Below are positions 6,849-62,480 of a stretch of 64,000 nucleotides of DNA, piece by piece (the first letter of the stretch is position 1; each line of letters opens with the position of its first letter). The notes beneath the pieces were generated by a model. That model was not told the DNA's origin. It made no database searches and saw nothing but the letters and a program-made list of their open reading frames with translations. The DNA comes from an uncultured virus (IMG/VR IMGVR_UViG_3300037234_000959). Its lineage: Duplodnaviria > Heunggongvirae > Uroviricota > Caudoviricetes. A program made the translations under genes and the position numbers. The DNA lies in the IMG/VR virus record IMGVR_UViG_3300037234_000959. One strand, written 5' to 3'.

Positions 6849-6850
6849 GT

Positions 6851-7170: not shown

Positions 7171-7250
7171 GCTGTCAAGGCTAAAGAGCCTTATGCTGAG
7201 TGCATCACTTAACGACGATATCTTAATATATAGAAAATCAAGGAGCAATC

Positions 7251-11449: not shown

Positions 11450-11490
11450 CCATGTTTATATAGACATATGTCTATATAACACTCAAGAGG
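11443..11490 (-). other. attI-like palindromic site, copy 2
   Basis: Perfect 24-bp palindrome TTATATAGACATATGTCTATATAA at 11456-11479. Confidence 0.6.
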
Positions 11491-11595
11491 GAGTACTTTA
11501 TTAACTGAACAATGAGAGGAGATTTAAAAAAAGCCCCGCCCCGCTGCCAAGCGAAGCAGGGCAATAAGAAAGGAGCCGCGAACGGCTTGTACTGG

Positions 11596-11626
11596 CCGGA
11601 CTGTTATAGAGCAGTCCGGTTTTTTG
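11596..11626 (+). terminator. Intrinsic terminator at the early/late convergence
   Basis: CCGGACTG...CAGTCCGG followed by a T run. Confidence 0.65.
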
Positions 11627-11771
11627 TTTGGCTTGTACCCCTATATAAGCACCTGCGATAAAACTCAAGGGGAGCCAAAAACTCTTTGATTTGTACCAGG
11701 GCACGCTGCGGTAGTCTGCCAAGGCCTTGCCGCAAGTGGTGGCCTCGCTCTTCCAGTCCCCCGCCCTACCA

Positions 11772-31109: not shown

Positions 31110-32573
31110 CTACTGCGGCGTATAGCTACCGCAGTTCTTGTAGACCCTGACTCTCTCGGGTGCCTTAAGTACAAGCACGATGTAGAGCAGGAGCAAGAAC
31201 GGGAAGGTTGTATCCACCTGAGGTAGAGGCATCTTGGCAAGAGGTGCAAGCTGAGCAATTGTGATATCCTTGCTGTCAGGCTTGATTACCAGCGAGAGAC
31301 CATTTGCGGCCTTGCCGGCTGCATCTACCGTTCTCCATCCGTTAAGGTCAACGAATGTAGCATTACCAGAGGCAGGTTGAGTGATACGACCTATCCATCT
31401 TGCCGTGGTCACATCGTCAACAGTACTCCTGTAGATCCTGTATCCAGTTGCAGCATCTACCCTCGTGATAGTGAGAGTAATCTTCTGCCCTACTGTTGCC
31501 GCCTGTCCGCCGGATGCGACCGTTAGGCTTTCTCCTGAGTCATTAAAGGCGGAAACAAAGTAGTAGTAGGTATCGGCCTCAAGCTTAGAGGTTGCCTCTG
31601 AGGCAGCCGCTGGGCTCGCTGCGGCAGATGCGGCAGGCGCACTAGCATCAGCTACTGCCAGAGGCGCAGAACCCTCAACCTCTTCCATCAGGATGGAGTG
31701 ATCAAGGCCAATGTTACCGAACTGATTCTCATAAGCAGGCACCTTAAAGCCAGGTGTATATTCAGCACCACGGCTATTATCCTTGTTGTGCCTCACGATG
31801 TTACGATCCTGATACTGCTTATTAATACCGTCGGAAACATGAGCGCTCATTATTGCGCTATACCCGTTAACAGTTGCCTGCTTACCGGTTGTGACGAGAT
31901 CAAGAGCTGACTCATCAAGCTGCTCAAAACCAAAAGCGGCACCTTCCATATCAACGACATTGCTAGGGTTAACCGCCTCAAGCTCAGTGAGGATGCCGTT
32001 CATGTTGACCTCGACACCGTTTTCGTCCTTGATGGCCTCCTGACCGAAAAGAAGTTCTCTCTCTAGCCTTTCGAGCATTTCCATTGTCCTGTCCCGGTTT
32101 TCCCTGACAGTAGGATCCTCAAATGCACCACCCATGTTTCCGGTAGTTATCATTTGATGAGTGATTCCACCCTTGACGCCCAGGTACTTGGTATACTCAC
32201 CCTTTCTTTCGAAGCTGGACACTCCGCCCTTAGGCGCTCCACCTTCACGGAATCCAAGAGATCCCCTTCTACTGCCATACCCTTTATGCTTATTGTACTC
32301 ATAATAGGGCTGAGCACTTGGCACTTTCGGCAACATATTATAGAGCTTAAAGTGCTGCTCCGTAATCAAAACCTCGGTCATTACTCCGTCGAGATTTTCC
32401 AGCATATGAGGGCCACCTACTATTCCCCCTGGTCCGCTGTTTGTAGTCGTAAGGGCCTTTGCAAGATCGTCGATGATGTCGTCACCCGTCAAAGTGCCAC
32501 CACTCGGCGTCACATAACCCTGAGACTTTAACATCTCATCAAATGTTTGAACCTTTTGGTCCTTTTGGTCCAT
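31110..32573 (-). CDS. Major capsid protein (Herelleviridae-like)
   Basis: KALTT...ENLD N-terminus, LFG...GI, QLAPLAKMPL; follows protease and scaffold. Confidence 0.88.
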   Translation of the reverse strand: MDQKDQKVQTFDEMLKSQGYVTPSGGTLTGDDIIDDLAKALTTTNSGPGGIVGGPHMLENLDGVMTEVLITEQHFKLYNMLPKVPSAQPYYEYNKHKGYGSRRGSLGFREGGAPKGGVSSFERKGEYTKYLGVKGGITHQMITTGNMGGAFEDPTVRENRDRTMEMLERLERELLFGQEAIKDENGVEVNMNGILTELEAVNPSNVVDMEGAAFGFEQLDESALDLVTTGKQATVNGYSAIMSAHVSDGINKQYQDRNIVRHNKDNSRGAEYTPGFKVPAYENQFGNIGLDHSILMEEVEGSAPLAVADASAPAASAAASPAAASEATSKLEADTYYYFVSAFNDSGESLTVASGGQAATVGQKITLTITRVDAATGYRIYRSTVDDVTTARWIGRITQPASGNATFVDLNGWRTVDAAGKAANGLSLVIKPDSKDITIAQLAPLAKMPLPQVDTTFPFLLLLYIVLVLKAPERVRVYKNCGSYTPQ

Positions 32574-33392: not shown

Positions 33393-34316
33393 TTAACTAC
33401 TGATTAACCCTGCCGTTTTGGCAAAGGCGTAAAAGTCCGGGTTTTTACCCGAACCGTGGATGATTTTTTTAAGGAATTTAAACGTGTCGTCTGAACTGCA
33501 GCAGGTGCAATCAGTCATATGTTTTGCGGCACCCTGGATGCCTTTGTGAAAATACCCGGTCTTTCTGTCATAGCAATCACACTGCTTGTCACCATAGAGA
33601 ACCTTAGACATGCCTCTATCCAGATTTTCCAGCATAAGAGCCCCTGTAGTAGCGGTGGACATAGCTTTTTCCATTCCCTTTGTCAGGAAGTCTATATTGG
33701 TGGGGGCATCGGCCTTATTGCCGCACTTGCGTGAGGGGTTGTAATTAGAACTGCCGGGGGTACAGCCGCCACAGCAAAGTGATTTAGCAAACATCTCTAC
33801 GCTGCATTTAGCATTTACCGGCTTGTGAGTGAGGGCAACGTTCCTGGCAATGGACTTAACGACCTTTTTGCCCCGACGTTGGACATAACTGCCTTCGATG
33901 GAGTATGCAAGCTTTCTGGTTCCGCTTTTCTTAAGCTGAAGACCAAGCTGCCACATTTCATTAGCAAGTTTTATCTGTTCGCTCTCGTTTGAATCTCCCT
34001 TAAAAAGCTCTCCCTCTACCCATAGGCCATTTTCCCGCATTTCTACCAGTGTGGGTATACCTATAATGATAGGAAACTTCGCCCCGCCTATAGTTTGCTT
34101 TTGGTGGTCGTAGTTGATATATCCTTCTCGCATTAAGGGTCCGAAATCCATCCCCTTCTGGAGGATCGATTCGCCGTCCTTGTCAAGATCTTCAGTTGAT
34201 GCATAGCCTTTTATGCAGCGCTTTCCTTCGCCTTCGCTCTTCTCGATGAGTTCGACAGAGTCAACAGGGATATCTATATAAAAAGTGTCTTCGTCTGTGG
34301 CTTCTATGTTTTCCAT
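33393..34316 (-). CDS. Prohead protease
   Basis: GYASTEDLDKDGE, NYDH, YSIEG and VALT.KPVN motifs; GGAGG RBS before ATG 34316. Confidence 0.88.
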   Translation of the reverse strand: MENIEATDEDTFYIDIPVDSVELIEKSEGEGKRCIKGYASTEDLDKDGESILQKGMDFGPLMREGYINYDHQKQTIGGAKFPIIIGIPTLVEMRENGLWVEGELFKGDSNESEQIKLANEMWQLGLQLKKSGTRKLAYSIEGSYVQRRGKKVVKSIARNVALTHKPVNAKCSVEMFAKSLCCGGCTPGSSNYNPSRKCGNKADAPTNIDFLTKGMEKAMSTATTGALMLENLDRGMSKVLYGDKQCDCYDRKTGYFHKGIQGAAKHMTDCTCCSSDDTFKFLKKIIHGSGKNPDFYAFAKTAGLISS

Positions 34317-34429
34317 TTTCCTCCAAATCAAAAAAGGCGACACTAAAAGGAATTCTCCCCTCAAATGCCGCCTATAATCCTTACTGGCTAACGACCGGTT
34401 AAGGCCCTGGCTTGCTCAGATCAAGCGAT

Positions 34430-34654: not shown

Positions 34655-34793
34655 CCTAATAAAAATATTTCTTTTTTCGCAAAACACCTTTAATGCATCA
34701 CTTTAACTCGGCATCTTATTATATATAGAAGGAAATTGATTAAATCTTAAAAGAAACAGTTGATTTCATTAAGTATTTATTTTCACTTTAAGC

Positions 34794-39873: not shown

Positions 39874-41271
39874 ATGTATTCTCCTTGATCGTTGTGGTGA
39901 GTAATCTCCGCGTATTTTACGATTGCCATAATAAGAGTTTGGATGCCAAACTTCTTCTGCTCCTTCCGTATATTCAAACTTCAAAAAAGGCGGGTCGCCA
40001 GCACCTTCACTTGAATAGAATTGCTCATATTCCCCCGCTACTGCGTCGTCCGTTCTCCAAAGAAACCCATAGTTAGTTGAAGGGTTCTCTATCATATCCT
40101 GCAAGGTTGCTGGCGTTAAATCAAATGTATGAGTTCCGGATGAACCTACAAAAGTGGTGGACTCTGGAATTGTTTGATAGTCTACTCCTGCCGTCCGACA
40201 CCCCTCACTATCCCAGGGAACGGTGTTGAACTTCCTCCAATTAAAACAGGGTTCGTCAATTCCTGCTGTCGTACCATCTTTTGTTCCATCTACCCAATCA
40301 CCAGCTAGAATTCTATGGATTTTGTGATTATAGCCATTACCACTCCTGCCAGATGAAGTAGCCCCCAGATGCCCTGATAATATAGTAATGCCTAAACCTG
40401 AATATGCGGTCAAATCTGTATTACTTAGTATATCTGATTCATTTGCGCCAGCTACAAATCTATGCGTCCACATTATAGGTGTAGCTCCATAGTTTTTATC
40501 AAGATTCAGAGCGAAGTTAGATAATAGAGTTTCAATGAAAGTACCGCTAACACCATCAATGGTGAAATAAGGGTCAACCTTTACTGGAGCAGCAGCTTGT
40601 CTAAGCCATGAGATATCCACAATCCGCTTAATAATAGTCTGTCTGCCGCCCTCAACAGAACCAAGATCCAGTACGACTTCTCCTCTCTCGCCGTTAGCAT
40701 CCTCTGCCCATGGCGCATGTATCATGATCGGTTCGGGGCCATCAAGGAGTATGCCGCCATTGACCTCTTTATAGGTATATCCGCCGCCAAGTTCCTCAAT
40801 ACTGAACTTAAAACTATCAGGCGCGTTTAAAGGGTCGTCAAGCACCATTACAACAGCAACACCCTTATACGTCGGAGTATGCTCAATAGTCACACCTTTC
40901 TGGGCCTTAAATTTTGGCTTATTATCAGTGATCGATTCGAATGAACAGTTCGCCCCTTCATACCTTAGGCGTATGCCTGTGCCGGATTCATATTGGAGTG
41001 TTACTTCATGTTTGTTTAAAGATGAAGGATTGACAAAAGAGAGGTTGCCATATCTCCCTTCATTAACGCGCCAAGGGTTTCTATCTCCAATCCTCTCAGT
41101 AAGGCCCATATCACAAGGAACAAAGAGTCCGCTATTTTTGTCCCTTTTATTAAGGCCATTTTGGAGGATCGCCCTGATAATGGGAGACTCCACACCCGTC
41201 TTAATATCTTTGTGCGTCCTGCCCGTGATGATCTCGTTTATATCCAGATCTTTATGAAAAATTTGCGGCAT
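39865..41271 (-). CDS. DNRLRE/CBM96-like domain virion protein
   Basis: NYG...NYGFL...FYSSE...P.L...Y pattern; APWAEDANG. Confidence 0.6.
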   Translation of the reverse strand: MPQIFHKDLDINEIITGRTHKDIKTGVESPIIRAILQNGLNKRDKNSGLFVPCDMGLTERIGDRNPWRVNEGRYGNLSFVNPSSLNKHEVTLQYESGTGIRLRYEGANCSFESITDNKPKFKAQKGVTIEHTPTYKGVAVVMVLDDPLNAPDSFKFSIEELGGGYTYKEVNGGILLDGPEPIMIHAPWAEDANGERGEVVLDLGSVEGGRQTIIKRIVDISWLRQAAAPVKVDPYFTIDGVSGTFIETLLSNFALNLDKNYGATPIMWTHRFVAGANESDILSNTDLTAYSGLGITILSGHLGATSSGRSGNGYNHKIHRILAGDWVDGTKDGTTAGIDEPCFNWRKFNTVPWDSEGCRTAGVDYQTIPESTTFVGSSGTHTFDLTPATLQDMIENPSTNYGFLWRTDDAVAGEYEQFYSSEGAGDPPFLKFEYTEGAEEVWHPNSYYGNRKIRGDYSPQRSRRIHGT

Positions 41272-44200
41272 TATACCTTTACCCGCTTAAGCAAAAACAA
41301 CCCTCTCCCTTCAACCATCTCCATAGCCTTCTTCAAAGTCTTTTCCTTCTTAATCAACCTAAAGAGGTTTTCCATCACCTTGTTGATTTTATTCCTCTCC
41401 ACTCCCTCAGGATAAGGGAAGACCTGCTCCCACTCTCCTTTTTCGTTCGGCATGACCTGCCCCACGTTACTGGCATGACCGACCAGGTAGGTATTCGTCC
41501 GGCCAGTCTTCTTGAGTTTATCTTCCATAAAACCCTCGAAGGATCTGGCTGCCATCTCTTTAGGTGACGACCAGTAGGAGGACTTGCGGCCTTCCAGTTC
41601 TTCTATGCGCCTGGCGCTGGCGAGGAACTTGCTCCCACGGGAAGCAGGGTCAACAAATGTACCCTTACTCCCCTTGTGGTGGGCAACAGACATCTCTCGG
41701 AAAAGTTTGTAATTCTTGTCCGCTTTTTTCCCCGAACCAAACCTTCCTTCAGTGCGAAGTTCATGTAGCTTATCAATAGCACCTTGCAGGTTTTTAGCAT
41801 CTTTAATTGTATGAAAAGCGGAGCCAGCCCTGTTAGAGGGGGAGGTCCTAGCCTCAAGCTGACTCTTCCAGTGATCACGCTCTCTATCGGTCAAGGTAAC
41901 GGTTTGTTTCTGTCCATGTTCGCCTGCGGTCATGATTTCAACCAGATCGCCGAACGCCTTTTGGACAGGGGTTGATTGCATTTCCTTAGAAGTATCGGTA
42001 CTGAACGTTATCGTTCCACTCCCCACTGCACCCCTATCGACTTCACCGGCTATGTGATCAACAGCGTGAAACCATTCATGACTAAGGGACCCGCCCCCTT
42101 TCATCTTCGTCAGATTGATAGCCATATACTGGCTTTCGTAATGAGCGGCCGCCTTTGACAGGCCCTGCCCTCTGGCACCAAATGCCATAGAAAGCCTGTT
42201 ATTCATAGAAATGTCCTTGTCGGGGATACTGAGCATGTCCGCCATATCCTGAAAAGCCATTGCGCACTGCTCTACATGAAACTTGGCAGAATTGACATCC
42301 TTAAGTACCCAGTTTCCGGACTGTACGTTTTTAAGCTTAAACTGTTTCTGGAGCTCTTCCGTTGTGTTTGAGACAAGCGGACTTCCCCCCGTGCGCTCTA
42401 TATGATCGGCTACGGCAAGCTGAAAGCGGACATTTTGCTTTGTCCCCTTCTTAACCGTGCTCTCTCCCTTGGCAAAGGAGTAATCCTTAACCCTGCCGAC
42501 ACGGGCGGCGGAAACATGTTTACCGAATGCATCAGAGCCCTTAAAGCTGCGGAATTTAACGACAGCGTAAAACTTCTTGCCCAACGCTAGATTGCCACGG
42601 GTGAGGATATTGTCTTCCACATTCCGGCGCTTAACGACCTCCCGAAAGAGTCTCATTTCTGCCTGCGCTTCTCCGGACTTTTTGTAATGGGAGTCCATTG
42701 TCTTCTGATTTTTCTTACGCCATGCAGCATCGATGTCAAATAACTTATTTACTTTCTTATCGAGTACCTTAAATTTTTTCTCCAATTCTGGATCAGCTTT
42801 CCATCCTCTACGGGTTCTCGCCTGCCGCTCATAATTCATACTATCACGTTCCTTAGATGGCCCGTAGTAGGCGCCCCACACCTTGTCGTGTTCTTCACGC
42901 AAATCACGGTATTTGTTCCAAGCGTTACTATGCTTCCCGTCTAGCTTCTTATATGTCTTTACCTCTTCAGGGTTTAGAACAAAACCATCAACCTCCTCTT
43001 CAATCTCCTTGAGATTTTTCATTACATCGTCAATGGTCTTGACCTTCTCCATTCTATCCTTCAGCGAATTAATGCCAAAGACGAAATCTTCCCTCAACTG
43101 CGGCAAGTCATCTGGACGGATAGCAACAGCCGTGTATATTTTCTGGATGAGGAAGGCGGCGCCGGGCTCTACTCCTCGCTTTTCCATCTCATCGAAGGTT
43201 GAGGCTCCGAAGACGTTCTGCTTATTAATAAGGTTATAGGCCTCCTTCGGGTTTTCCTCCAAAGACATCCAGTCAAGATCAGGCCCCCTGAGTCCTCGCT
43301 TATCCCGGATGAACGATCTTATCTGCAGAAGGGCTTGCTCCTTCCTGGACCCCGGGATATTCCCAACATCCTTAAACCGATAGTCTTTAGACCGATAGTC
43401 AAGGTCATCTTCAGGGGCAGTCTTTTTTGTCCTAATGTCGGTATGTTCTCTTACTTGGACAATCTTGCCTGCCTTGGTTTTCCGAGTGTGGGCCTTTACC
43501 CGAGATTTCATAAGAAAAAGACCTGATGCCATTTCTACGATTGACTTAGTTATTCTTGGCCTCCCTAAGGGGCGACCCATCCATGAATCTGTACCACGGT
43601 CAACCATCACAGATTCACGAACTGAGTAGGGTTCATTATTGTTAAAAAATATTGCATCGGTAGCAACTTTACCCTGAACGGCCTCTATGATATTTTTTCT
43701 CATTGCATCGGTTAGCTTGTCGGATCTATTGGCAGTCATGATAACCTCAGGGGATCCAAACTCTCTTGCTCTACCCCTCAGATAATCAGCGAGCCCTTCC
43801 TTATTCTTGGACATGCCTACTGGTATTTCCTGTATGCCCCTAATTTTTCCATCTGAACCACGGTAAAAGACGTTAATGAAATCATCAGGTGTTTTTAAAT
43901 CCTTGGCAAACCTTATAACATCTTCTTGTCCGCTGATCTTTTTTCCGAGCAAAGGATGAGGAAGCGACGGCTCTATAAATGTATCGACCTTTTCTTCAAG
44001 CTTAAATGTTTCCGGCTCCTTGGTCAACCTTACTTCACCGGGAAGATGGGCTACACCTATAGTGGAATATTCATTTGAATTAATAATCACATGCCCCTTT
44101 ATCTCGGGAATACGATCGATAAGATAACTGGTTAATTGTACATCTGCCCCGGACGGCTTTGACCGGCCGCTGGGATGGTTATGTAGAAGCCACACGCTAT

Positions 44201-44741
44201 CAGCGCCAAGTCGCTTGATCCTGTCTTTTAACTCGTGGACTTCTTTTGCTGGTTCTTTGGCAAAGGCTATTACCATGCCAGGCATACGACTTGTCCTCCC
44301 TTCGTGGCCTACAACCTTACCTTCCTTTGTATATATATAGCGGGTGGTTTCAAATTGTGGATTCCGGTAGACCTGTGCGAGTACCGCGATATCTTCAGCG
44401 TTTTTAGCCTCACGACCACGGAGATCTATATATCCCTTGTTCGCCAGTTCCGACGTTATGCCCACACCGAGAGTCTTAACGCCTCCCTTGCGCACCTTTT
44501 TTTCCATTCGATGGGTAGCGGCAAGAGCCTCAGCTGCTATCTGCAGGTTGAGCTTATCCTTTTTGTAGACCTCATGGTTATCGGAAAGATACTTTGCCGC
44601 AAGGGATGGGGAAGAAAGTTGGTGGGATTCCGCCTTTTTGGTTCTGCTATCCTCATGCTCTTTTACGAGAACAACCTTGCCACTTTTTAGCCTGCGGGAA
44701 TGCCCCTTAACACGCGATTTCAATAGCAGAGGAAAAAACAT
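41271..44741 (-). CDS. Large polyvalent protein: JAB/RadC plus LPD1/zincin-like
   Basis: HNHPSG...PS.AD JAB; AFGARG...AHYE...HEWFH; YWS...EM.AR.FE...YP.G.ER LPD1. Confidence 0.75.
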   Translation of the reverse strand: MFFPLLLKSRVKGHSRRLKSGKVVLVKEHEDSRTKKAESHQLSSPSLAAKYLSDNHEVYKKDKLNLQIAAEALAATHRMEKKVRKGGVKTLGVGITSELANKGYIDLRGREAKNAEDIAVLAQVYRNPQFETTRYIYTKEGKVVGHEGRTSRMPGMVIAFAKEPAKEVHELKDRIKRLGADSVWLLHNHPSGRSKPSGADVQLTSYLIDRIPEIKGHVIINSNEYSTIGVAHLPGEVRLTKEPETFKLEEKVDTFIEPSLPHPLLGKKISGQEDVIRFAKDLKTPDDFINVFYRGSDGKIRGIQEIPVGMSKNKEGLADYLRGRAREFGSPEVIMTANRSDKLTDAMRKNIIEAVQGKVATDAIFFNNNEPYSVRESVMVDRGTDSWMGRPLGRPRITKSIVEMASGLFLMKSRVKAHTRKTKAGKIVQVREHTDIRTKKTAPEDDLDYRSKDYRFKDVGNIPGSRKEQALLQIRSFIRDKRGLRGPDLDWMSLEENPKEAYNLINKQNVFGASTFDEMEKRGVEPGAAFLIQKIYTAVAIRPDDLPQLREDFVFGINSLKDRMEKVKTIDDVMKNLKEIEEEVDGFVLNPEEVKTYKKLDGKHSNAWNKYRDLREEHDKVWGAYYGPSKERDSMNYERQARTRRGWKADPELEKKFKVLDKKVNKLFDIDAAWRKKNQKTMDSHYKKSGEAQAEMRLFREVVKRRNVEDNILTRGNLALGKKFYAVVKFRSFKGSDAFGKHVSAARVGRVKDYSFAKGESTVKKGTKQNVRFQLAVADHIERTGGSPLVSNTTEELQKQFKLKNVQSGNWVLKDVNSAKFHVEQCAMAFQDMADMLSIPDKDISMNNRLSMAFGARGQGLSKAAAHYESQYMAINLTKMKGGGSLSHEWFHAVDHIAGEVDRGAVGSGTITFSTDTSKEMQSTPVQKAFGDLVEIMTAGEHGQKQTVTLTDRERDHWKSQLEARTSPSNRAGSAFHTIKDAKNLQGAIDKLHELRTEGRFGSGKKADKNYKLFREMSVAHHKGSKGTFVDPASRGSKFLASARRIEELEGRKSSYWSSPKEMAARSFEGFMEDKLKKTGRTNTYLVGHASNVGQVMPNEKGEWEQVFPYPEGVERNKINKVMENLFRLIKKEKTLKKAMEMVEGRGLFLLKRVKV

Positions 44742-50090: not shown

Positions 50091-50729
50091 TTATTTTATA
50101 AGTAAGTTATCCTTATAGGTAAAATATGTAATATTCTCATTTCGAGTTGTTATACATCTGGCCGCAACCCCATCTATAGTTTCTGCTCCTGCCGGATCAA
50201 TACAGCAGCTATTCCCTGATGCATCTATCTTTTTTACATTACCAATTCGTTGCCCCACAACTCCCGAGGCTGAAACTATATAAATGTCAATATCGTCAGC
50301 CGTTGCATCACATATGATTTGATTTTTATTATTGATAGCAGAATAATTACTAAATATGGTTGTTGTGCTTGTAAAAGTCGACAACAACATAAACGAGGTA
50401 TCGGGTAAACCGTTAAGAGTTTTGGCGTCAACATTACCGGTAAAATTAGTGAAGCTCGTTTCAAGGCTGTTGAGCTGGCTCGATACATTCGCCAATACTG
50501 GCATCGCAACGGGATCTGTTTCAGTCCCAAGCGTTCCAGTCCCATATGACGAATAATCACCAAAAACAATCTTATCGCCAGGCACTAAAGGGCTTACCAC
50601 CCCCGTCCTGCTATCACGTATCCACCCTGATTCGCGAGGGTCGATAGTTTTACCCCCTTTTTCGGTGCGTCTGCCATAGGCTGGAAACGCCATCGCAAGG
50701 ATAAGTATTGCTAAAAGTATTTTTTTCAT
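50091..50729 (-). CDS. Signal-peptide protein with fibre-like C-terminus
   Basis: MKKILLAILILAMAFPAYG; DAKTLNG and KKIDASGN...ETIDG motifs. Confidence 0.65.
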   Translation of the reverse strand: MKKILLAILILAMAFPAYGRRTEKGGKTIDPRESGWIRDSRTGVVSPLVPGDKIVFGDYSSYGTGTLGTETDPVAMPVLANVSSQLNSLETSFTNFTGNVDAKTLNGLPDTSFMLLSTFTSTTTIFSNYSAINNKNQIICDATADDIDIYIVSASGVVGQRIGNVKKIDASGNSCCIDPAGAETIDGVAARCITTRNENITYFTYKDNLLIK

Positions 50730-50860: not shown

Positions 50861-52051
50861 ATGATAATTAATAAGGCATACAGTTTTCGTTTGTATCCAA
50901 CAAAAGAGCAGGAGAACTTGTTTGCTCAACATTTCGGGTCATGCCGTTTTGCTTATAATCACTTTCTTCGTCAAAGGATAGACTTCTATGCCGAGAATAA
51001 GGAGAGCGATAAGATAGGTTTAACATATTGCGACACCTCCAGAATGTTGACGGAACTTAAAAAACAACCGGAAACTGTCTGGCTTAAAGATGTCAATTCT
51101 CAATCCCTTCAGCAGTCCCTTCGCCGTCTTGACGTTGCTTACAATAATTTCTTTAGCAAGAAGGCTCAATTCCCGAAGTTTAAAAGTAAGCATAAAAAAC
51201 AATCTTTTCAGGTTCCTCAGAATTTCAGCATAGATATTGATAATGGACTTCTTTCTATCCCTAAAATCGGCTCTCTTAAAATCGTATTGCACCGGGGAAC
51301 CGAAGGAACTATGAAAAGCATCACTATATCCAAGACACCTTCTGGTAAATACTTTGCCTCCATCCTTTGCGAGATAGAGAAGGATATCAAGCCTAAACAG
51401 ACTGGTGGGCAGATAGGTATTGATCTTGGCCTCAAGTCTTTTATCGTAACCTCCGAGGGTGAAAGTATTGGTGCTCCTAAGTTCCTCCGCAAGTCTGAAA
51501 ACAAGCTTGCCCGGCTTCAGCAGCTCCATTCCCGCAAAAAGAAAGGAAGCAACAGAAGAAACAAAGCGAGAATAAAAGTTGCTCGCATATATGAAAAAAT
51601 TTCCAATCAGAGAAATGACTTCCTTCATAAACTGAGTCACCGTCTGACTAGCGAGAACCAAGCTATCCTTGCCGAAGACTTGAATATTAAGGGAATCATG
51701 GCGAATCATTGTCTGGCTAAGTCCGTTTCGGATGCTGGCTGGTCGGAGTTTATTCGTCAAATCAAATATAAATCTGAATGGAACGGGGTATATTTTGGAC
51801 AGATTGACAGATTCTTTCCAAGTAGTAAGCGATGTGCAGTTTGCGGCTGGATAAATCAATCCCTTTCCCTTAAAGATAGGGAATGGACTTGTCAGGGTTG
51901 CGGCCAAGTTATTGATCGTGATTTGAATGCTGCTCAAAATATCCTCCAATTTGGTTTGCTTCAACGTACCGAGGGACGCTCGGAAACGAAACGCCCAGGG
52001 AGACCACGTGCTGTTAGACGGGTCGCTGAACTGGGAAGCCGCCTGCGTTAG
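50861..52051 (+). CDS. tnpB: RNA-guided endonuclease TnpB
   Basis: N-terminal HTH; RuvC GIDLG / EDL / DRDLNAA; CxxC...CxxC Zn finger. Confidence 0.95.
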   Translation: MIINKAYSFRLYPTKEQENLFAQHFGSCRFAYNHFLRQRIDFYAENKESDKIGLTYCDTSRMLTELKKQPETVWLKDVNSQSLQQSLRRLDVAYNNFFSKKAQFPKFKSKHKKQSFQVPQNFSIDIDNGLLSIPKIGSLKIVLHRGTEGTMKSITISKTPSGKYFASILCEIEKDIKPKQTGGQIGIDLGLKSFIVTSEGESIGAPKFLRKSENKLARLQQLHSRKKKGSNRRNKARIKVARIYEKISNQRNDFLHKLSHRLTSENQAILAEDLNIKGIMANHCLAKSVSDAGWSEFIRQIKYKSEWNGVYFGQIDRFFPSSKRCAVCGWINQSLSLKDREWTCQGCGQVIDRDLNAAQNILQFGLLQRTEGRSETKRPGRPRAVRRVAELGSRLR

Positions 52052-53179: not shown

Positions 53180-54235
53180 TTATTTTGCTACCCGTCTCTT
53201 TTTCCACATTAATGGCATAGACTTAATAATTTTTGCTGTCTTCTCCTTGGTCGCCAATACCTTGTCCTTGAACTGCTCCATGGGCATAGTAGTCATGCTG
53301 CCAAGGAATCTTTTGTCGTTGTAGTGGGCAAGATAGGCAGACTTAGCTTCGCTCATAGAGGCAAAGCCAAGCATACATTTCTGTTCATCATAGGTTTTAA
53401 ATTCAGGCGCCTTCATCTGGTGGACTATATAAGCGCTCTTCGCATCCTTATGGGGCCCAACATAGCAATCTACATGATCACCATCGCTACCCTCAGTCAT
53501 CCTGATGTAGCCATAAGGACATTTCATACGGGTTGTGCCGTTCTCCTTATTATGCGGATCGTACCACTGCCTGATGCTACCCTTGCGATTTTCGACGGAT
53601 ATATTCAGACCTTGGAAGTTCATGCGGCCGTGGAGGGAGCGGGATTTAAGGAGATAAGGGACTAAGGCAGGAAGAGACTTTTTGATTGTTTTATGGATGT
53701 AGTGACCATCCACCTTTTCGATCTCATCCAGATTAACCGTAAAGGTTCCACTACCCTTTTCCATCTCAATCCTGTTTGATGCTGGCATTACCTTAGTCAC
53801 CTTCATGATTCCGAAAGCGCGATTACCTGTGTCTACTGAATCGCCAGGCTTTATCGCCTTCCCCGGCTTCTTCTCAGGATCCTCTTTATCCTTGCCGCTC
53901 CCGCCCGTCGCATGCTCATAGAGGTTCCTGAATGCCTTGTCGGGACTCAGCTCGCCGCCTTCGCCAAATTTCTCTTGAAACTCATCTGCAACTTCCTTAG
54001 GGATGCCCGTCCTATGCTTGAATGCGGCATATGCCGTTTCGAAGCTGTCGTGCTTAGCCACCTCGCTAACAATTGCCGAAAGTCCACTACTCATAGATGG
54101 AGCCTTGGCAGTCTTCTTACTCCTTATGTCTTCATGTTGGCGAACCTGAACGATTTTCCCGCCCTTCGTCTTCCTTGTATGCTCTTTGACGACGGACTTG
54201 ACCATTTGCTCTAGTTTAGAAAGGGAAATGTACAT
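53180..54235 (-). CDS. Polyprotein with inorganic-pyrophosphatase-like (InPase) domain
   Basis: EN.KGS.R...YGYI..T.G.DGDHVDCYVG...DE.KCMLGF; N-terminal basic tag. Confidence 0.75.
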   Translation of the reverse strand: MYISLSKLEQMVKSVVKEHTRKTKGGKIVQVRQHEDIRSKKTAKAPSMSSGLSAIVSEVAKHDSFETAYAAFKHRTGIPKEVADEFQEKFGEGGELSPDKAFRNLYEHATGGSGKDKEDPEKKPGKAIKPGDSVDTGNRAFGIMKVTKVMPASNRIEMEKGSGTFTVNLDEIEKVDGHYIHKTIKKSLPALVPYLLKSRSLHGRMNFQGLNISVENRKGSIRQWYDPHNKENGTTRMKCPYGYIRMTEGSDGDHVDCYVGPHKDAKSAYIVHQMKAPEFKTYDEQKCMLGFASMSEAKSAYLAHYNDKRFLGSMTTMPMEQFKDKVLATKEKTAKIIKSMPLMWKKRRVAK

Positions 54236-56847
54236 TGAACTACCTCCGATTTTTTAATTCGCTTACTTGCTTCTTTTAAAGTTTTTTGACTTACCCCAAC
54301 TACTCCAGAACGACCTTTTTCATCTCTAAAACCCTCGATGTCCTTAAAGGTAAGAAACCGTGTTTTGCCAACAACGGACTTCTTCTTTTCAGGCTTAAAC
54401 GTGCTGTGAACTACGTTCCCCTTTTCCCTTTTCCGGTAAACCATGGAGACAACTTCTTTGTTCCCCTGTTCCGCAAAGATGATTGCATCAGCTTTCTTCT
54501 TCAAACCAAGCAGTCCACGACCATCAGCCCACTTGACGAAGAAACCATATCCGTTTTCGGCAACATCGGGAGTATCAAGCTTTTTGAACTTCTCGATAAT
54601 TGTGCTCTCTTCCCGGGGGAGGCTCGAAGATTTTTTAAGAAGAAATACCCTTGCCGCCATGGACTTCCTTAATTCTACTAGCTCCATAGATATAATATCG
54701 TTCTTAATCTTATCCCATGTTTTTTTCGTAAAAGGCCCGTCAGCAAGATCATTGCCTCTATTACGGTCTTCACCTGCTTCAGGCTTCCTCGCTGAACAAA
54801 CACAGCCAAGATATCCATCGGTATCTTTCGATGTCGAGATATAATTACTTCTATCTATGGCACGAACACTATATTTGTATCTATCGGTATAAAGATTGAA
54901 GGCAACACCTATCTCTGAATTGCCATGATCGTCTCCTTGTCCCCAGTCTTCTTTGATATCTACAAATTTATCAACACGACAGTATCTTGCGATTTCCTGT
55001 AACCACTCGTTTTTGAGAGTTTCTATTTTAGACATTTTATTATAAGACTTCTTAAGCAAAAACACCTTAGGAGCCAATATAAGCGCTTTTCTCTTCTGTT
55101 CAGAAGAGCATGTCTTTTCGAGTTCGGCGCCCTTAGGCAAAAGCAAGGGTATGCCTTTTTCTGCAAGAGACTTCCGAAGGCAGTACGTTCCATCTTTACC
55201 TAAATAAAGGTGATAGGCGTTGTTGTAGTGTTCATGTCCATGGGTACTCTCGCTCTTCTCTATACCACGAAGTCTATCTACCATGTCTCCAAAGAGTCCC
55301 TTAAAGGTAACACTCCATATCTGCTCAACCGCATGCCGCCAGCTAGTAAACCTGACAGCCCTGTCATCGAGGTAGATGTCTGCTATCGGCTTGCCCGGGT
55401 TCGTCCCTTCCGGCTGGTTTGGATTGATATTGATAAAATGATAAGAGATTTCATTATTGGCAAGATACGCCCTTAGCGCCGGGGTGTCTTCTCTGGTTGT
55501 AAATACAATAATCATGAAGCCAAATTCTGTAAGCTTCTGCATGGCCTCCACCGCCCCCGGGAGAACTTCTCCAAAAACATCATTTCCCTGAAAACCCTTA
55601 GAGTAGTCGGCAATGACACCATCGAAATCAACGCATACCGTTTTGTGTCCAGAAGAAACGCTCTTCCTGAGATCAAGAGCCTCCCGCATACTCTTCATGT
55701 AGTCCTGAAGGTCTTCAATGCCTCCAAGATCGCGCATCTTAACAAGGGCACCCTTGACGGCATCGGCAACATTATTGCGGGTCCATGCATATTCCTCTTG
55801 ATATTTCGTGCCCCTCTCTTTAAGCTTCTCGGCAATTTGCTCATTGGTATGTGGCTCATTATCACCGAGACCGAACTTCATACTAATCAGGTCGGCATCT
55901 GTTGAAGGGATCCGCGAAAGAAACTTCTCGATCGCTTTTTCTTTCGGAGGAAGCGCGAATCTTTCATGTTCAGGAGCGCTACTTAAGGCAGCAAGATTCC
56001 GCCTTGCTTCCGGATCCTCTTCGCCAGACTGGATGTCTATATGCTCTCTGCGTCTCTTGTTCTGGGTATTTACAACCTGTAGGGCTGAGTTTTTTCCTTC
56101 TCTCGACATGGAAACAAATATTCTACTCTTGTCTCGCTTTCCAGCCAGATGATCCTTGAATTCCTGTATATCCTTATCCGGGGTTTGAGCCGCCTCCCTA
56201 CGCAATGCATTCAGCATCCCTATGGCATATTCAGAAACCATGTCCGCATAATCATCATCATGGACACGAATAAACTCCCCGCTTGGATCAAAGCTTGTGT
56301 CCATATTATTCTGCTTGGCCAACCTGTGAACGCGATTAATGATATATCCCTTAATCCTATCATTAGTCAAAATATCTTCCTCGGTCATGCCAAGTCGCTT
56401 CATTCCTTTTTCACTCCTCTTCAGGCTTTCCTCTGAAGTAAGTACACGGTGAGCGCTGATCTTATCTCCTTTTGTGTAGCGAGTGTCCTTCTTACCCTTC
56501 TCCTGAAATGCCTTTAGCGATATAACCTGGCTCTTAGGGAGTATGTAGTTGATCACCTGGCCCTCGTTGCCCCGCTTACCCTTTATATGGTAATTCTCTG
56601 CCTTTGCGCCGACAATAACTCCCCTTCTCGCCCTTGCGGCCCCTTTAGGCCTGAAAACAACCTCCGTCCCCTTAGGGAGGCCCTTTTCTTTCCCGGTCTT
56701 CTTTTTGCGGATATCAGAATATTCCTTTACCTGAACCACTTTCCCGCCCCTTGTTTTCCGAACATGGGCCTTGACCACGGACTTGATAAGAAGGAGGTCC
56801 GTTGCAATGCCCAAGATAAAGGACTTAGATGTTTTTTTGTCAGCCAA
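54211..56847 (-). CDS. Polyprotein: basic tag, KOW-like, sigma70-like, HAD phosphatase and unknown domains
   Basis: Region 2- and 4-like motifs; VDFDGV...KP.ADIYLDD. Confidence 0.7.
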   Translation of the reverse strand: MADKKTSKSFILGIATDLLLIKSVVKAHVRKTRGGKVVQVKEYSDIRKKKTGKEKGLPKGTEVVFRPKGAARARRGVIVGAKAENYHIKGKRGNEGQVINYILPKSQVISLKAFQEKGKKDTRYTKGDKISAHRVLTSEESLKRSEKGMKRLGMTEEDILTNDRIKGYIINRVHRLAKQNNMDTSFDPSGEFIRVHDDDYADMVSEYAIGMLNALRREAAQTPDKDIQEFKDHLAGKRDKSRIFVSMSREGKNSALQVVNTQNKRRREHIDIQSGEEDPEARRNLAALSSAPEHERFALPPKEKAIEKFLSRIPSTDADLISMKFGLGDNEPHTNEQIAEKLKERGTKYQEEYAWTRNNVADAVKGALVKMRDLGGIEDLQDYMKSMREALDLRKSVSSGHKTVCVDFDGVIADYSKGFQGNDVFGEVLPGAVEAMQKLTEFGFMIIVFTTREDTPALRAYLANNEISYHFININPNQPEGTNPGKPIADIYLDDRAVRFTSWRHAVEQIWSVTFKGLFGDMVDRLRGIEKSESTHGHEHYNNAYHLYLGKDGTYCLRKSLAEKGIPLLLPKGAELEKTCSSEQKRKALILAPKVFLLKKSYNKMSKIETLKNEWLQEIARYCRVDKFVDIKEDWGQGDDHGNSEIGVAFNLYTDRYKYSVRAIDRSNYISTSKDTDGYLGCVCSARKPEAGEDRNRGNDLADGPFTKKTWDKIKNDIISMELVELRKSMAARVFLLKKSSSLPREESTIIEKFKKLDTPDVAENGYGFFVKWADGRGLLGLKKKADAIIFAEQGNKEVVSMVYRKREKGNVVHSTFKPEKKKSVVGKTRFLTFKDIEGFRDEKGRSGVVGVSQKTLKEASKRIKKSEVVQCTFPFLN

Positions 56848-58668: not shown

Positions 58669-60459
58669 TTAATCCTCCAGTTTTATTCTCAAAAACTTAG
58701 TTTCCCGCTGTGACTTCTCTATTTTATCGTCAGGGCTCTCAGTTGACTTTCTTTCGGCAACCTTATTTCCTTTCTGCTTGTCACCTTCGAAGAGTCCTCC
58801 ATCTTCATTCTCGTTACCATTGTTGTCAAAGCCGTCAAACATCCCGCCCTCACCGTTGTCGGCTCCTTCACCACCCTCACCCTCACCACCGCCCAACATA
58901 TCCATAGTGCTTAAATAGGTTGACATAGGGGCATCGGCAGGGAAATTCCAAGGGTTTTTCGGGTCATTAATATCACCGATAGGCTTCATACCTTCTTCCA
59001 TCCTGGCCTCATTCTTGGAGAGCCAGCCCTTTGTCCTCTTATCACGAAGCTCAAGAACTTCCTTCTCATCTTCATTATCGAACCCGGTCAATACCAGTTT
59101 CAGATCATCATAGCGGGGCTTGATAAGGTCTTGTGTCCACCACTCGCACAAATCAAGAAGAGAGGGCTTAAGGCCGTGTTCCTTACTCTCTGCAATCTCC
59201 CCGGCTGGATCGTGGGTGCTCATATGACTACCGGTTCCCTGGTCGGCAGAGAAATTAAGGACCGTGGGGTGGGCACCATATGCAGCGCATTTGAACATAA
59301 TCATGAAACGAAACAGCTCATCAAAGAGCATGTCCTTTGGAGATTCACGGAGCTTGTGAGTCTCTACTTTGAAGCTCTGAGCATCTGCCCCCGTCCCGGT
59401 ACTAATAACAGGAAGTCTCCAGTTGTTCTTTGGTCCCCCCGCCTCACCCAGGATATGCTGCTTAAAGGAATCAAGACCTTCTTTGTCAAAGTCTCCAGCA
59501 ACAGTAAGGATATTTTCAGGGTAATTGGTTTTGAAGAGTTCTTTGTTGTATGTCCATGCATATAGAAGGGTAGTTGTAAGATCGAGGCTTATCTCCAGAC
59601 GGCTTTCCCCATAGCCCCATTTATTGAGTTCATCACTTGGATTGGATATATGGACAGATATTTCGTCTTCCGTATAGGCCTCGACAACCATACCGTCTAC
59701 CATCTGAACATAAGCTGACTTCGCTATATCAAAGCCACTGCTGTAGCTCATCTTGGTCATAGTGTCCTGGCTAACCTTACCGCTCGGCTCATTTTTCTTT
59801 GCCCACTCACGCACAGACTCATCAACATTCTTTATCGTATCGCCCGGTAGCCAGTGGAAAGAGGCATAGCCCTTGCCGTCTTGCCTGTGATAGCGGCGTA
59901 TAACCTTACGATCTATGATAAGTTCGGCCTGTATAAGCCTCGATACGAGATCCTTGATGCCGTTATGTACTCGAATTCCGTGCGGATATATATCTGTGTA
60001 TTCAATGGGGGTGGGGTTGCCGATAAGCTCTTCCATCTCAAGGCAACGCTTCTTGATATCATCGGTCACCTTAAAGTCAGGATCATCATAGAGATCATGG
60101 ACAACTTTAAAACCTGGCTGTTTTTGCTTGGCATCAATAGAGCGCTGCCAGATAGATTTCATCTGGTCTTTACGGATACGGATCAGAATACGATCGACAA
60201 ATGATTTCTTTGCAGAGTCCCTGAGCATGGCAAAGGAAACGCTGTCCACGGGCTTTTCACGGGCACCGTGGGCAATCATATTCTGAAACATGTAGTTGCT
60301 GAAGAAGCGGGACTGATTGTCACCCTCACCCTTGGCGATGTTTCTCGCCTCGGCTTTAACAAGACCATCATAGTCCCGGTCGGAAACTATGATGCCGGCA
60401 GGTGTGACATGTGGATTTACAATGTTTGCGAGCTGCTTTTGCAGTAGGATATCATTCAT
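58669..60459 (-). CDS. Portal protein
   Basis: YVQ..DG, NP......GYGESRLE, KDM.F, GLKPSL, NEAR...G..PI; likely start ATG 60459. Confidence 0.9.
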   Translation of the reverse strand: MNDILLQKQLANIVNPHVTPAGIIVSDRDYDGLVKAEARNIAKGEGDNQSRFFSNYMFQNMIAHGAREKPVDSVSFAMLRDSAKKSFVDRILIRIRKDQMKSIWQRSIDAKQKQPGFKVVHDLYDDPDFKVTDDIKKRCLEMEELIGNPTPIEYTDIYPHGIRVHNGIKDLVSRLIQAELIIDRKVIRRYHRQDGKGYASFHWLPGDTIKNVDESVREWAKKNEPSGKVSQDTMTKMSYSSGFDIAKSAYVQMVDGMVVEAYTEDEISVHISNPSDELNKWGYGESRLEISLDLTTTLLYAWTYNKELFKTNYPENILTVAGDFDKEGLDSFKQHILGEAGGPKNNWRLPVISTGTGADAQSFKVETHKLRESPKDMLFDELFRFMIMFKCAAYGAHPTVLNFSADQGTGSHMSTHDPAGEIAESKEHGLKPSLLDLCEWWTQDLIKPRYDDLKLVLTGFDNEDEKEVLELRDKRTKGWLSKNEARMEEGMKPIGDINDPKNPWNFPADAPMSTYLSTMDMLGGGEGEGGEGADNGEGGMFDGFDNNGNENEDGGLFEGDKQKGNKVAERKSTESPDDKIEKSQRETKFLRIKLED

Positions 60460-60465
60460 ACTGAT

Positions 60466-60499
60466 ATTGTATGACAATATGCGTTATTTACAAAACATT
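60466..60499 (-). promoter_or_regulatory. Putative late promoter
   Basis: AATGTTTTG-N19-TACAAT, ATG 6 nt downstream. Confidence 0.65.
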
Positions 60500-60786: not shown

Positions 60787-61884
60787 TCACACCCTCATCG
60801 GCATAACAATAGCGATACTCTCAGGATCCTTGTCACACTGGAGCAGTATAGGATCTTGATCGCCTTTGGCACTAAGGATAAGGGTCTCTCCCGTCATCAC
60901 GGTCATGAACTCCAGGAGGTACTTGGCATTAAACCCTAAAGTAATTGCCTCACCGGCATATTCAACTTGTGCCTCCTCCGTTGCATCTCCAAGCCCGGGG
61001 TTCGTGGTAGATAGCATCATGACCCCACTTTTTAGCTCTAGCCGGATCGCCCTTGTTTTATCATCTGAAAGGATAGCAACCCGCTTTACAATACTTATTG
61101 CCTCCTTACGATTAATGCTAATAGATGGGCCTGAATATTCGGGAATGACCTGTTCATAGTCGGGGAACTCGCCCTCGATAAACCTACTGATAACCACCGT
61201 GTCCCCTGCCCTAAGGACTGCATGATTGCCCTTAAAGCCCATTTCTACATTGTCAGCTCCATCAAGGACCTTCCTGAATTCCTGTATTCCACCACGGGGG
61301 ACAATATGACCCCGCTTTTCCTCTTTAACGGGACTGCCGTGAACGACTACGGCAAGCCGGTGGCCGTCGGTGGAGACAAGCTTTATACCTACATCACTCA
61401 CATGCTCCACATAAACGCCGCCAAGGTTATATCTCGACTGGTCCGTAGATACGGAAACTATTACCTTGTCTATCATGCTGGACAGAACGGATGCCTTAAC
61501 CTCAACGGTTTCGGTTTCATCAACAAGCGGGATCCTGGGGAAATCATCCATATCAAATCCCACCATTTTAAAACGAGCCTTACCTGACGATATCTCAACC
61601 CAATGGTTTTTAGCCTTTGAAATTGCAACCTCAGCTCCGGGGGCTTCCTTTACAATGTCCAGCAACTTCTTTGCCGGTAGACAGATAGAACCCTCTACAA
61701 CTGTCTCGGCCTCTATCTCTTCAATGATGCTCACCTCAAGGTTGGTTGTTGTCAACTTAAGGTAGCCGTCTTCTGCCTTAATCAAGACCGATGAGAGTAT
61801 GGGCATGGTATGGACACTACCTACCGCTCCCTGGACTTTACTGAGCGCTGCCATCAGTTTGTTTTTACTTATCGTGATCTTCAT
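60787..61884 (-). CDS. dnaN: DNA polymerase III beta sliding clamp
   Basis: PILSSVLI, STDGHRLA, EG.FPDYEQVIP, GFNAKYL, VMPMRV. Confidence 0.95.
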   Translation of the reverse strand: MKITISKNKLMAALSKVQGAVGSVHTMPILSSVLIKAEDGYLKLTTTNLEVSIIEEIEAETVVEGSICLPAKKLLDIVKEAPGAEVAISKAKNHWVEISSGKARFKMVGFDMDDFPRIPLVDETETVEVKASVLSSMIDKVIVSVSTDQSRYNLGGVYVEHVSDVGIKLVSTDGHRLAVVVHGSPVKEEKRGHIVPRGGIQEFRKVLDGADNVEMGFKGNHAVLRAGDTVVISRFIEGEFPDYEQVIPEYSGPSISINRKEAISIVKRVAILSDDKTRAIRLELKSGVMMLSTTNPGLGDATEEAQVEYAGEAITLGFNAKYLLEFMTVMTGETLILSAKGDQDPILLQCDKDPESIAIVMPMRV

Positions 61885-62030
61885 TTGTTACCTCCAGCGT
61901 TATTATTTGTTGTCACCTGGTTACTCCTTTTTTTAAAAGCCAGATGGCTACGAGAACAAGGGGCCCATCCCCTCCCCGGTAAGACATCCGGGCATCTGGC
62001 AAACTTAGTATTATAGATCTTAGGTGCTCA

Positions 62031-62480
62031 CTAGAATGGGATATCGTCGTCTTCAAAATCATCAGACCCGCCGGGTGATGAACCCTGTCTGCCAGCGGAT
62101 GAACCCTGAGAGCTACCACCCCTGCTACTATCAGAAGCACCGCCGTTCCCTACCTGGCCAAGCATGGTCATGTTGTTGGCCACTATCTCAGTTGTCTGCT
62201 TCTTGTTGCCGTCCTTATCATCCCATTCTCTTGTCTGGAGCCTGCCTTCAATATAGACCTGCTTTCCCTTGAAGAGGTATTCGCCGCATATCTCGCCTAG
62301 CTTGCCCCATGCAACAATGCGATGCCATTCAACTTTTTCCTCTTTGTTGCCGTCTTTGCCTGTCCACCTTTCGGAGGTTGCAAGACTGAAAGAGGCTACG
62401 GCTTGACCAGCCTTAGTGTATCTGACTTCCGGATCCCTTCCGAGATTCCCAACCAGTATTACTTTATTTACACCTGCCAT
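62031..62480 (-). CDS. ssb: Single-stranded DNA-binding protein
   Basis: [15 protein letters not shown]...EWHRIV...DDDIPF. Confidence 0.97.

Follow-up and report, generated by a model that had tools for sequence, protein, structure and literature searches.

We found that an 878-residue protein encoded by an uncultured tailed phage carries, near its N-terminus, a module that on the evidence of sequence profiles and predicted fold is very probably a true homolog of sigma70-family factors. The phage is represented by a 64,000-nucleotide stretch of DNA (IMG/VR record IMGVR_UViG_3300037234_000959; Caudoviricetes), called the window in the following, and the protein by a single open reading frame (ORF) on its minus strand, at positions 54211–56847. 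A first-pass annotation made from the DNA letters had placed a divergent sigma70-like factor at 55720–56400, embedded in a putative virion polyprotein, and had suggested that such a factor or sigma mimic, carried in the particle, could redirect host RNA polymerase (RNAP) upon entry. We put the probability of that full chain, in which a virion-delivered sigma-family protein engages the host RNAP core on entry, at roughly 0.45.

The peptides quoted in that annotation are all encoded on the minus strand within this one ORF, which starts with a TTG codon with GGAG ahead of it: YIINRVHRLAK at amino acids (aa) 168–178, DMVSEYAIGMLNALRR at aa 201–216, LSRIPSTDADLISMKFGL at aa 310–327, EPHTNEQIAEKL at aa 331–342, TRNNVADAVKGALVKMR at aa 356–372, and the tetrapeptides YMKS and LRKS at aa 383–386 and 393–396. 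They span nucleotides 55660–56346, approximately the interval that had been given, without a strand, for the sigma-like region; a plus-strand reading of 55720–56400 was discarded, its frame being full of stops. An identical 878-aa protein is present in a public collection, and since the ORF has relatives with up to 47% identity, it is a real gene. The first unit of this multi-domain protein (aa ~24–386) consists of a basic leader, a small beta domain and the sigma-like module proper. The latter comprises a helical domain resembling sigma domain 2 (aa 138–268; 56044–56436), which carries an 18-residue insert with a beta-hairpin, an acidic flexible linker that includes DIQSGEEDPEARRNLAAL (aa 269–300; 55948–56043), and a helix-turn-helix (HTH) domain resembling sigma region 4 (aa 301–385; 55693–55947). 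The small beta-rich domain ahead of the module (aa ~55–112, GTEVVFRPKG..RRGVIVG..; 56512–56685) is tentatively SH3/Tudor-like and has conserved columns in the family alignment; its structural neighbours in the ESM Atlas reach template modelling (TM) scores of only 0.44–0.50 and belong to mixed families.

The module is shared by a family of metagenomic proteins. Compared exhaustively with 1.84 billion cluster representatives by HMMER, aa 140–390 matched 61 proteins at E ≤ 1e-3, 42 at E ≤ 1e-10 and seven at E ≤ 1e-30. Because of these matches, and because the family profile in turn matched sigma factors of known structure, we do not regard the module stretch as a product of chance. We count 53 of the 61 as family members, having excluded six proteins with repeated Pfam Sigma70_r4 domains that match the C-terminal part of the query only (P0051, 55, 56, 59, 60 and 63) and two beta-propeller proteins matched over short stretches only. 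The six Sigma70_r4-repeat proteins gave an initial hint that the proposed region 4 is genuine. In the 53 members the module spans the whole query, at about aa 115–400 of proteins of 188–2131 aa, and it always lies near the N-terminus, as it does in the 878-aa protein (aa ~138–385). The order domain 2, acidic linker, region 4 is retained down to about 21–25% identity. The other domains found in family members are ddrB-ParB (9), SNF2 helicase (7), HAD (3), InPase (2), LPD1 (2), RadC (2) and MuF_C (1), so that the 878-aa protein is homologous to proteins bearing hallmark domains of polyvalent proteins. A word-index homolog search with aa 140–390 returned the 878-aa protein itself as its sole match; and in the clusters of ten relatives, with 15 members listed, one protein was called 'hypothetical protein' and the others were nameless.

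For the C-terminal half of the module, sequence profiles and the predicted fold both point to an HTH homologous to sigma region 4 (4.1–4.2). When a profile of 29 family members was compared with all PDB sequences, sigma factors occupied 41 of the 43 rows at E ≤ 10, with SigA as the best match (8h3v_G, E 1.1e-5) and six rows at E ≤ 1e-3. The alignment runs from the acidic segment (..EDDPE..R.. in the family, ..EEDSRLGDFIE.. in sigma) through regions 4.1 and 4.2 and ends in the C-terminal tail (..LRGFL in the family, ..LKEYI or LRDYL in sigma). Family profile positions 237–260 thereby fall on the stretch of SigA ahead of region 4, which places the linker on the sigma region 3.2/4.1 segment; at the other end the alignment reaches the natural C-terminal tail of SigA/RpoD, so that YMKS falls where primary sigmas end. 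Using hhalign, the trimmed C-terminal half matched RpoD with a probability of 94.8% (E 5e-8), RpoS with 84.9%, RpoH with 20% and RpoE with 4%, all six E. coli sigmas aligning in the region-4 register, while 11 unrelated E. coli proteins did not exceed 0.6%. Of the NCBIfam models, only those for sigma factors matched the piece from the window (TIGR02997, E 2.5e-4; RpoD_Cterm, 1.4e-3; MzaA, 3e-3; rpoS, 5.8e-3), and the sigma70-ECF model matched four of seven scanned relatives (E 0.003–0.04) from profile position 49–63 to about 145, a span that begins near the end of domain 2 and continues through region 4. The first residues of the recognition helix (W-T-R-N) rank with the most strongly conserved in the family; two of them, W235 and N238, are invariant in one of the family alignments (A3). 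Single-sequence searches of Pfam and the PDB with the module, which gave no sigma factor and only noise, such as armadillo-repeat designs, were set aside.

The predicted fold points in the same direction for both halves of the module. From a single sequence, AlphaFold2 (AF2) gave an unusable model (mean predicted local distance difference test score, pLDDT, 44), whereas with a 53-row alignment (A2) aa 121–395 were modelled at a mean pLDDT of 85.7 and a predicted TM score of 0.60, with 179 of 275 residues at or above 90. The model contains two well-defined helical domains (model residues 18–148 and 182–265; pLDDT 93–98 across residues 21–140) that are joined by a low-confidence linker (pLDDT 51–67). 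All of the best 50 rows of a Foldseek search of the PDB were sigma chains of RNAP complexes or sigma models, aligned over 264–381 columns with probabilities of up to 0.97 and E-values from 4.1e-3. Among 48,161 representative chains compared with VIA-align, sigma factors made up 36 of the best 50 rows. These were headed by the full-length sigmas HrdB (7vpd_F, Z 9.5) and Taq sigmaA (4xln_F, Z 9.1) and included isolated region-4 domains (SigD4, 3vep_D, Z 8.4, 68 of 68 residues aligned at a root-mean-square deviation of 3.3 Å; CnrH, Z 8.2; SigW, Z 8.2, at 2.0 Å) as well as sigmas from holoenzymes of the extracytoplasmic function (ECF) type (sigmaL, 6dv9_F, Z 8.1, 150 of 174 residues aligned; sigmaH, 5zx2_F, Z 7.4). 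Within these best 50 rows, nine were confined to the N-terminal half of the module; three of them were gamma-secretase, an epitope scaffold and PG0816, and the remaining six were sigma domain-2 entries aligned over 69–92 residues: 1sig_A (Z 6.9), SigI6 (8i24_F, Z 6.8), the N-terminal domain of SigE (8b3z_A, Z 6.7, 80 of 80 residues), pro-sigmaK (8vjl_B, Z 6.4), RpoS region 2 (Z 6.1) and Taq domain 2 (3ugo_A, Z 6.0). The N-terminal half of the model thus resembles sigma domain 2 by fold only, and this structural match (Z 6–7) is, taken by itself, of moderate strength. Phage-encoded sigma factors were the top named rows in BFVD, rows 2–5 having probabilities of 0.91–1.00, and the ESM Atlas's own model of the protein retrieved sigma70 clusters in ten of ten listed structure rows, the best over 171 residues (aa 154–382; TM 0.47/0.63).

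The basic tag that the first-pass annotation had described ahead of the module is real, and it has a counterpart elsewhere in the same phage. The leader (aa 19–50, LLIKSVVKAHVRKTRGGKVVQVKEYSDIRKKK; 56698–56793), which combines LLIKS with VVKAHVRK and is a candidate capsid-targeting and cleavage signal, is 59% identical (19 of 32 residues, E 3e-9) to aa 5–36 of a second large polyvalent-like protein of 1156 aa (41271–44741, minus strand; start MFFPLLLKS); two cargo-like proteins of one phage thus share an N-terminal tag. The 1156-aa protein itself has a RadC/JAB-like stretch at aa 175–225 and a CLCA_X/phrog_29900 domain at aa ~770–930.

LLIKS belongs to a group of short motifs, hydrophobic-(L)-K/R/I/M-K-S in their broad form, that occur eight times in the 878-aa protein (aa 20, 383, 393, 557, 598, 726, 737 and 864), for the most part at domain borders. 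Under a strict pattern there are five sites, whereas the frequency in the other 58 ORFs would predict 0.69 (Poisson P 7e-4). The motif also stands at residue 6 of the 1156-aa protein, directly before the InPase domain of a 351-aa protein (YLLKS), in the presumed scaffold protein, and in the major capsid protein (MLKS, aa 14–17) ahead of the part that is common to other capsid proteins. In relatives of the module, a hydrophobic residue followed by K-S is found within the first 45 residues in 25 of 52, mostly at residues 2–20, and many of the others look truncated. The same annotation had the module closed by YMKS and LRKS sites (55660–55701), and this is borne out by the family: at the same two columns, the motif (F-L-K-S) is conserved with its K-S in 25 of the 41 relatives that have residues there. 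Since further copies mark other domain borders and are present in the presumed scaffold and near the start of the capsid protein, the hydrophobic-L-K/R-K-S motifs are probably sites of the prohead protease, for which the phage encodes a candidate enzyme (33393–34364, minus strand; phrog_1028, E 2.9e-45). Internal proteins of phage T4 possess a capsid-targeting leader together with prohead-protease sites, and by analogy the leader and motifs described here would fit the same arrangement.

LRKS is followed by a HAD-type phosphatase domain with a DFDG motif (aa 397–510; 55318–55659; phrog_1238, E 1.5e-27; NCBIfam HAD_phos_BT0820, E 2.1e-5), which has tblastn matches to phage HAD genes. The C-terminal part (aa 560–878; 54214–55170) is split by LRKS (557), LKKS (598), LRKS (726), LKKS (737) and IKKS (864) and has no family match in Pfam, PHROGs, NCBIfam, PADLOC or PDB sequences; it forms at least two segments past the HAD domain (aa ~602–729 and ~741–866) that are candidate cargo domains. 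The protein thus combines unrelated domains of effector type, namely the sigma-like module and the HAD phosphatase, with at least two further segments.

Its gene lies among head and packaging genes. The window is that of a tailed phage with myovirus-type genes, and portal, InPase protein, prohead protease and capsid genes are found in one minus-strand block with the 878-aa gene. The portal gene (58669–60477; PF04860, E 1.3e-10; phrog_12, E 5e-21) lies two genes upstream, separated from it by a gene for a 403-aa protein on the same strand, and the next gene downstream encodes the 351-aa protein with the InPase domain (53180–54235; PF18823, E 1.4e-38), which also matches phrog_4660, 'minor head protein' (E 1.5e-26). 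This order recurs in a related viral contig (L022), where a portal gene, a 406-aa gene, a 1695-aa homolog combining the module with HAD and helicase domains, and an InPase protein follow one another. The major capsid protein (31110–32573; phrog_752, E 2e-46) is at most 26% identical to capsid proteins of cultured phages by tblastn, the homology beginning at aa 47–53; the minus strand further holds the presumed scaffold protein and genes for sheath, baseplate and fibre.

There is direct support for the homology and fold of the module, for its fusion to polyvalent domains across the family, for its synteny with head genes and for the repeated occurrence of the motif. On this basis the 878-aa gene would encode a head-associated 'polyvalent' cargo protein, and it is likely that the protein is packaged. 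In the mechanism that we propose, the leader would carry the protein into the prohead, where the prohead protease would cleave it at the hydrophobic-L-K/R-K-S motifs and so free the sigma-like unit, the HAD phosphatase and the other cargo; the C-terminus of the freed sigma-like unit would coincide with that of primary sigmas. The pieces would then exit the capsid together with the DNA, and the sigma-like protein would bind the host core and, ahead of all phage gene expression, either steer it towards phage promoters or draw it off those of the host. For binding of the RNAP core as such, we see a chance slightly better than even. The boldest version, in which large uncultured phages forming a whole family (some 50 clusters at 50% identity) pack a pre-made sigma70-family factor as the first module of their polyvalent cargo, free it at L-K/R-K-S and inject it so that the core is reprogrammed at time zero, must be called doubtful.

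A number of observations weigh against this interpretation. Packaging, cleavage, ejection, core binding and promoter specificity are all steps that we infer. No curated sigma model of Pfam (Sigma70_r2, Sigma70_r4) or NCBIfam attains its threshold: in Pfam, the piece from the window matched no sigma family even at E ≤ 10, the Sigma70_r4 model matched just one of 29 family members (E 0.0021), and the NCBIfam sigma scores for that piece were 16–20 bits, with cut-offs of at least 354 bits. All Foldseek E-values, in the PDB and in BFVD, are above 1e-3, and VIA Z-scores of 6–9.5 (below ~8–13) may, for helical proteins, reflect a common arrangement alone. The N-terminal half gave at most 0.4% against the six E. 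coli sigmas in hhalign, which is not significant, and a permissive hhalign comparison with aligned sigma region 2 produced the expected register at a probability of just 1.4%; no sequence-profile probability for domain 2 exceeded 1.6%. In this non-significant register, RVHRLAKQN lies over LVISIAKKY (region 2.1) and is followed by a 13-residue insert, DMVSEYAIGMLNALRR lies over DLIQEGNIGLMKAVDK (region 2.2), and STYATWW of RpoD lies over SRIFVSM, so that the aromatic residues with which RpoD recognizes the −10 element (YATWW) are not conserved. ECF sigmas, too, differ at the residues of regions 2.3–2.4 that serve −10 recognition and melting. In the same register, region 2.2 keeps its acidic D and E, which contact the beta' clamp helices. 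A deeper ECF profile was of no use for examining domain 2, as the 120 listed RpoE homologs were all at least 86% identical. The turn of the region-4-like HTH holds an insert of about 13 residues (KERGTKYQEEYAW), the aligned position in the capsid N-termini of phages SP-10 and DAC19 is occupied by residues other than K-S, and tblastn searches of 50,697 records of cultured phages, with the module, P0036 and P0022 as queries, found no relative of the module. Of the sigma70-like module that had been proposed, region 4 thus stands on both sequence profile and fold, while region 2 stands by fold; the two peptides that had been taken for region 2 do align colinearly with regions 2.1 and 2.2, in the register that lacks statistical significance.

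Given that region 4, a DNA-binding HTH, is the sole part backed by sequence, the sigma fold might have been reused as a DNA-binding module that does not bind the core, serving in protection of genome ends, in head condensation, as a pilot, or as a repressor or activator after entry. The very basic leader next to it would suit such a role, as would the generic HTH proteins in the VIA list (small terminase 4xvn_A, Z 7.2; DosR, DesR, EL222, SorC) and the weak matches of five of 29 family members to the recombinase HTH family PF07508. However, a lone HTH would be enough for DNA binding, and the retention of domain 2, linker and region 4 at about 21–25% identity argues for a function that exceeds it; full-length sigmas also outscore entries consisting of domain 4 only (Z 9.5 and 9.1 versus 8.4), and the C-terminal tail aligns with that of primary sigmas. 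We therefore consider this role unlikely. A sigma decoy is also conceivable, which would read no promoter and would instead sequester the RNAP core, shutting off the host, or capture an anti-sigma or another sigma-binding factor. A precedent exists in PhyR, whose sigma-like domain binds the anti-sigma factor NepR and is itself among the structural matches (3t0y_C, VIA Z 6.6); the loss of the −10-recognition aromatics in the permissive register would agree with a decoy, and reading of the −35 element may suffer from the insert in the turn of the HTH. Yet the conserved start of the recognition helix, with its invariant tryptophan and asparagine, argues that a specific contact has been retained, and no partner is identifiable in the data, so that a decoy appears quite unlikely.

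Two further readings question the packaging and the homology, respectively. The protein could be made late and work inside the cell that produces it, for instance as a middle or late sigma factor freed from a polyprotein, with the K-S motifs being linkers or sites of another protease; this is how phage sigma factors normally work, and the capsid proteins of SP-10 and DAC19 that lack the motif would be consistent with it. The location of the gene between portal and prohead protease amid genes of InPase and polyvalent type, with synteny conserved in L022, speaks for packaging instead, as do the leader common to two cargo-like proteins and the fusion of relatives to ddrB-ParB, MuF_C, LPD1 and InPase, which belong to the polyvalent-protein domains described in passages of the original account (PMC5512222); we rate intracellular action as distinctly improbable. 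Finally, a generic HTH next to an unrelated helical bundle could mimic a sigma factor by chance or convergence, as might be argued from the Foldseek E-values, the cautioned range of the Z-scores and the missing Pfam match. In that case it would be hard to see why five independent lines put sigma factors first, namely the PDB profile search, hhalign with its controls, NCBIfam, three structure libraries searched with the AF2 model, and the search with the Atlas's own model, and why both domains match in the correct order with the correct linker; the chance of this explanation being right is very small. A packaged sigma-family protein acting on the host core thus continues to be the reading that we prefer.

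Several features of the window stand apart from this argument. A viral metagenome contig (L001) is identical to the window over 11.5 kb; it was the only locus that a search for related loci with the 878-aa protein returned, and with P0005 as the query such a search gave none. Portal and prohead protease, which adjoin each other in SP-10, are here some 24 kb apart (34365–58668); this interval holds polyvalent-type proteins, the InPase protein, a methyltransferase, HNH endonucleases and TnpB, and looks like an expanded block of cargo or ejection proteins. The TnpB/IS605 OrfB gene (50861–52051) is on the plus strand, opposite to the head genes that surround it, and its best relatives (72–76% identity) come from an archaeon bin, two Nitrospirota and one Peptococcaceae, all of them metagenome-assembled genomes, pointing to no clear host. 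Directly upstream of the portal gene, the phage itself encodes a 365-aa DNA polymerase III beta clamp with all three Pfam domains, and a single-stranded DNA-binding protein (60787–62480, minus strand). Repeats were noted in three genes: the ORF adjoining the capsid gene (30505–31014, minus strand, 169 aa) contains six tandem 18-nt units at 30676–30813 that encode a short repeated peptide, a 750-aa fibre-like gene has a 218-nt repeat that occurs twice with 89% identity (13621–14114), and a 661-aa tail lysin-like gene has a 117-nt tandem pair with 91% identity (21594–21827). No tRNAs were found in the window, and a PADLOC scan gave no match.

The window also contains promoter-like DNA. A bipartite motif, TGCATCACTT-N10-WCTTAWTATA, occurs in three exact copies on the plus strand (3372–3401, 7201–7230 and 34694–34723), with 0.02 expected, and in a weaker copy at 50304–50333; none of 100 shuffles reached four matches. 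The exact copies lie directly 5' of blocks of plus-strand genes that start at 3573, 7251 and 34760. In its −10 part the motif comes close to the consensus, whereas the upstream TGCATC is unlike TTGACA, and the motif could be the target of a phage-specific sigma. In addition, a 44-nt element with the palindrome TATATAGACATATGTCTATATA is present in two copies of 86% identity (7128–7171 and 11447–11490), both intergenic, within 6849–7250 upstream of the gene that starts at 7251 and within 11024–11771 after the last gene of that plus-strand block; it may be an operator or a terminator.

The take-over of host transcription by phages is a classic problem, and to our knowledge the tools known to be delivered by virions are whole RNAPs and enzymes that modify RNAP, sigma factors being thought to be made only after infection. 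Should the present reading hold, promoter specificity itself would be deliverable as a protein, which would explain how some phages with early promoters unlike those of the host start up, and the repertoire of polyvalent proteins would gain a new domain. If confirmed, the L-K/R-K-S motif and the common leader would also constitute a signal for capsid targeting and release that could be used to load phage heads with foreign proteins. Neither sigma factors nor polyvalent proteins are new as such; what is new here is the context of a real sigma70-family derivative. As an N-terminal unit of head-linked polyvalent proteins, a sigma-family module is not recorded as such in Pfam, PHROGs, NCBIfam or PADLOC, and the literature considered, including passages of PMC5512222, PMC7824862 and PMC7318152 and leaving supplements aside, mentions neither a packaged sigma nor a sigma domain in polyvalent or virion proteins.

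Among known systems, the module has the architecture of two-domain (group 4 or ECF) sigma70-family factors, with a domain 2-like part, an acidic linker and a region 4 HTH in that order and no domain 3. Unlike ECF sigmas, it is not a stand-alone protein of about 190 aa, since roughly 135 residues of leader and beta domain precede it and enzymes follow; it also bears the 18-residue insert in domain 2 and the 13-residue insert in the HTH turn and stays below every curated threshold, and the sequence of its region 4 is nearer to primary sigmas than to ECFs, as the hhalign probabilities for RpoD and RpoE indicate. Its best viral structural neighbours in BFVD are stand-alone phage sigmas (those of Synechococcus phages S-CBWM1 and ACG-2014f and of Bacillus phages), and viral Sigma70_r2/r4 clusters are also among its feature neighbours in the ESM Atlas; these sigmas, however, are separate genes, and phage sigma factors are normally expressed within the cell after infection, whereas the module is fused into a multi-domain protein linked to head genes. 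MzaA of the MZA anti-phage system (NCBIfam NF041931) is likewise a long protein of several domains with a sigma-like C-terminal part, and its profile is matched by one relative of the module at positions 564–684 of 726 (P0007, E 1.9e-7). MzaA, however, is a host defence protein, and the module scores 16–30 bits against its cut-off of 800 bits.

Polyvalent proteins, as far as the passages of Iyer et al. 2017 that we draw on describe them (PMC5512222), occur in phages and conjugative elements and unite multiple effector domains in a single chain whose gene lies next to those for packaging or conjugation, with ddrB-ParB and MuF linked to head packaging, and both proteolytic processing and a 'jump-starting' of transcription were proposed for them. 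The relatives of our module conform to this picture in their hallmark domains (ddrB-ParB, SNF2, InPase, LPD1, RadC and MuF_C). In the same passages, processing is ascribed mainly to zincin-like metallopeptidases, none of which was found in this phage, and the example given for transcription is the virion RNAP of N4; the word 'sigma' does not occur in the main text of that paper, supplements aside.

The virion RNAPs of N4 and phiKZ and the ADP-ribosyltransferase Alt of T4 are packed into the head and injected with the DNA, and they reprogram transcription at time zero. Whereas N4 and phiKZ bring a whole polymerase and T4 an enzyme that modifies RNAP, the cargo of the phage described here would be a promoter-specificity subunit for the core of the host, and would thus represent a third strategy beside these two.

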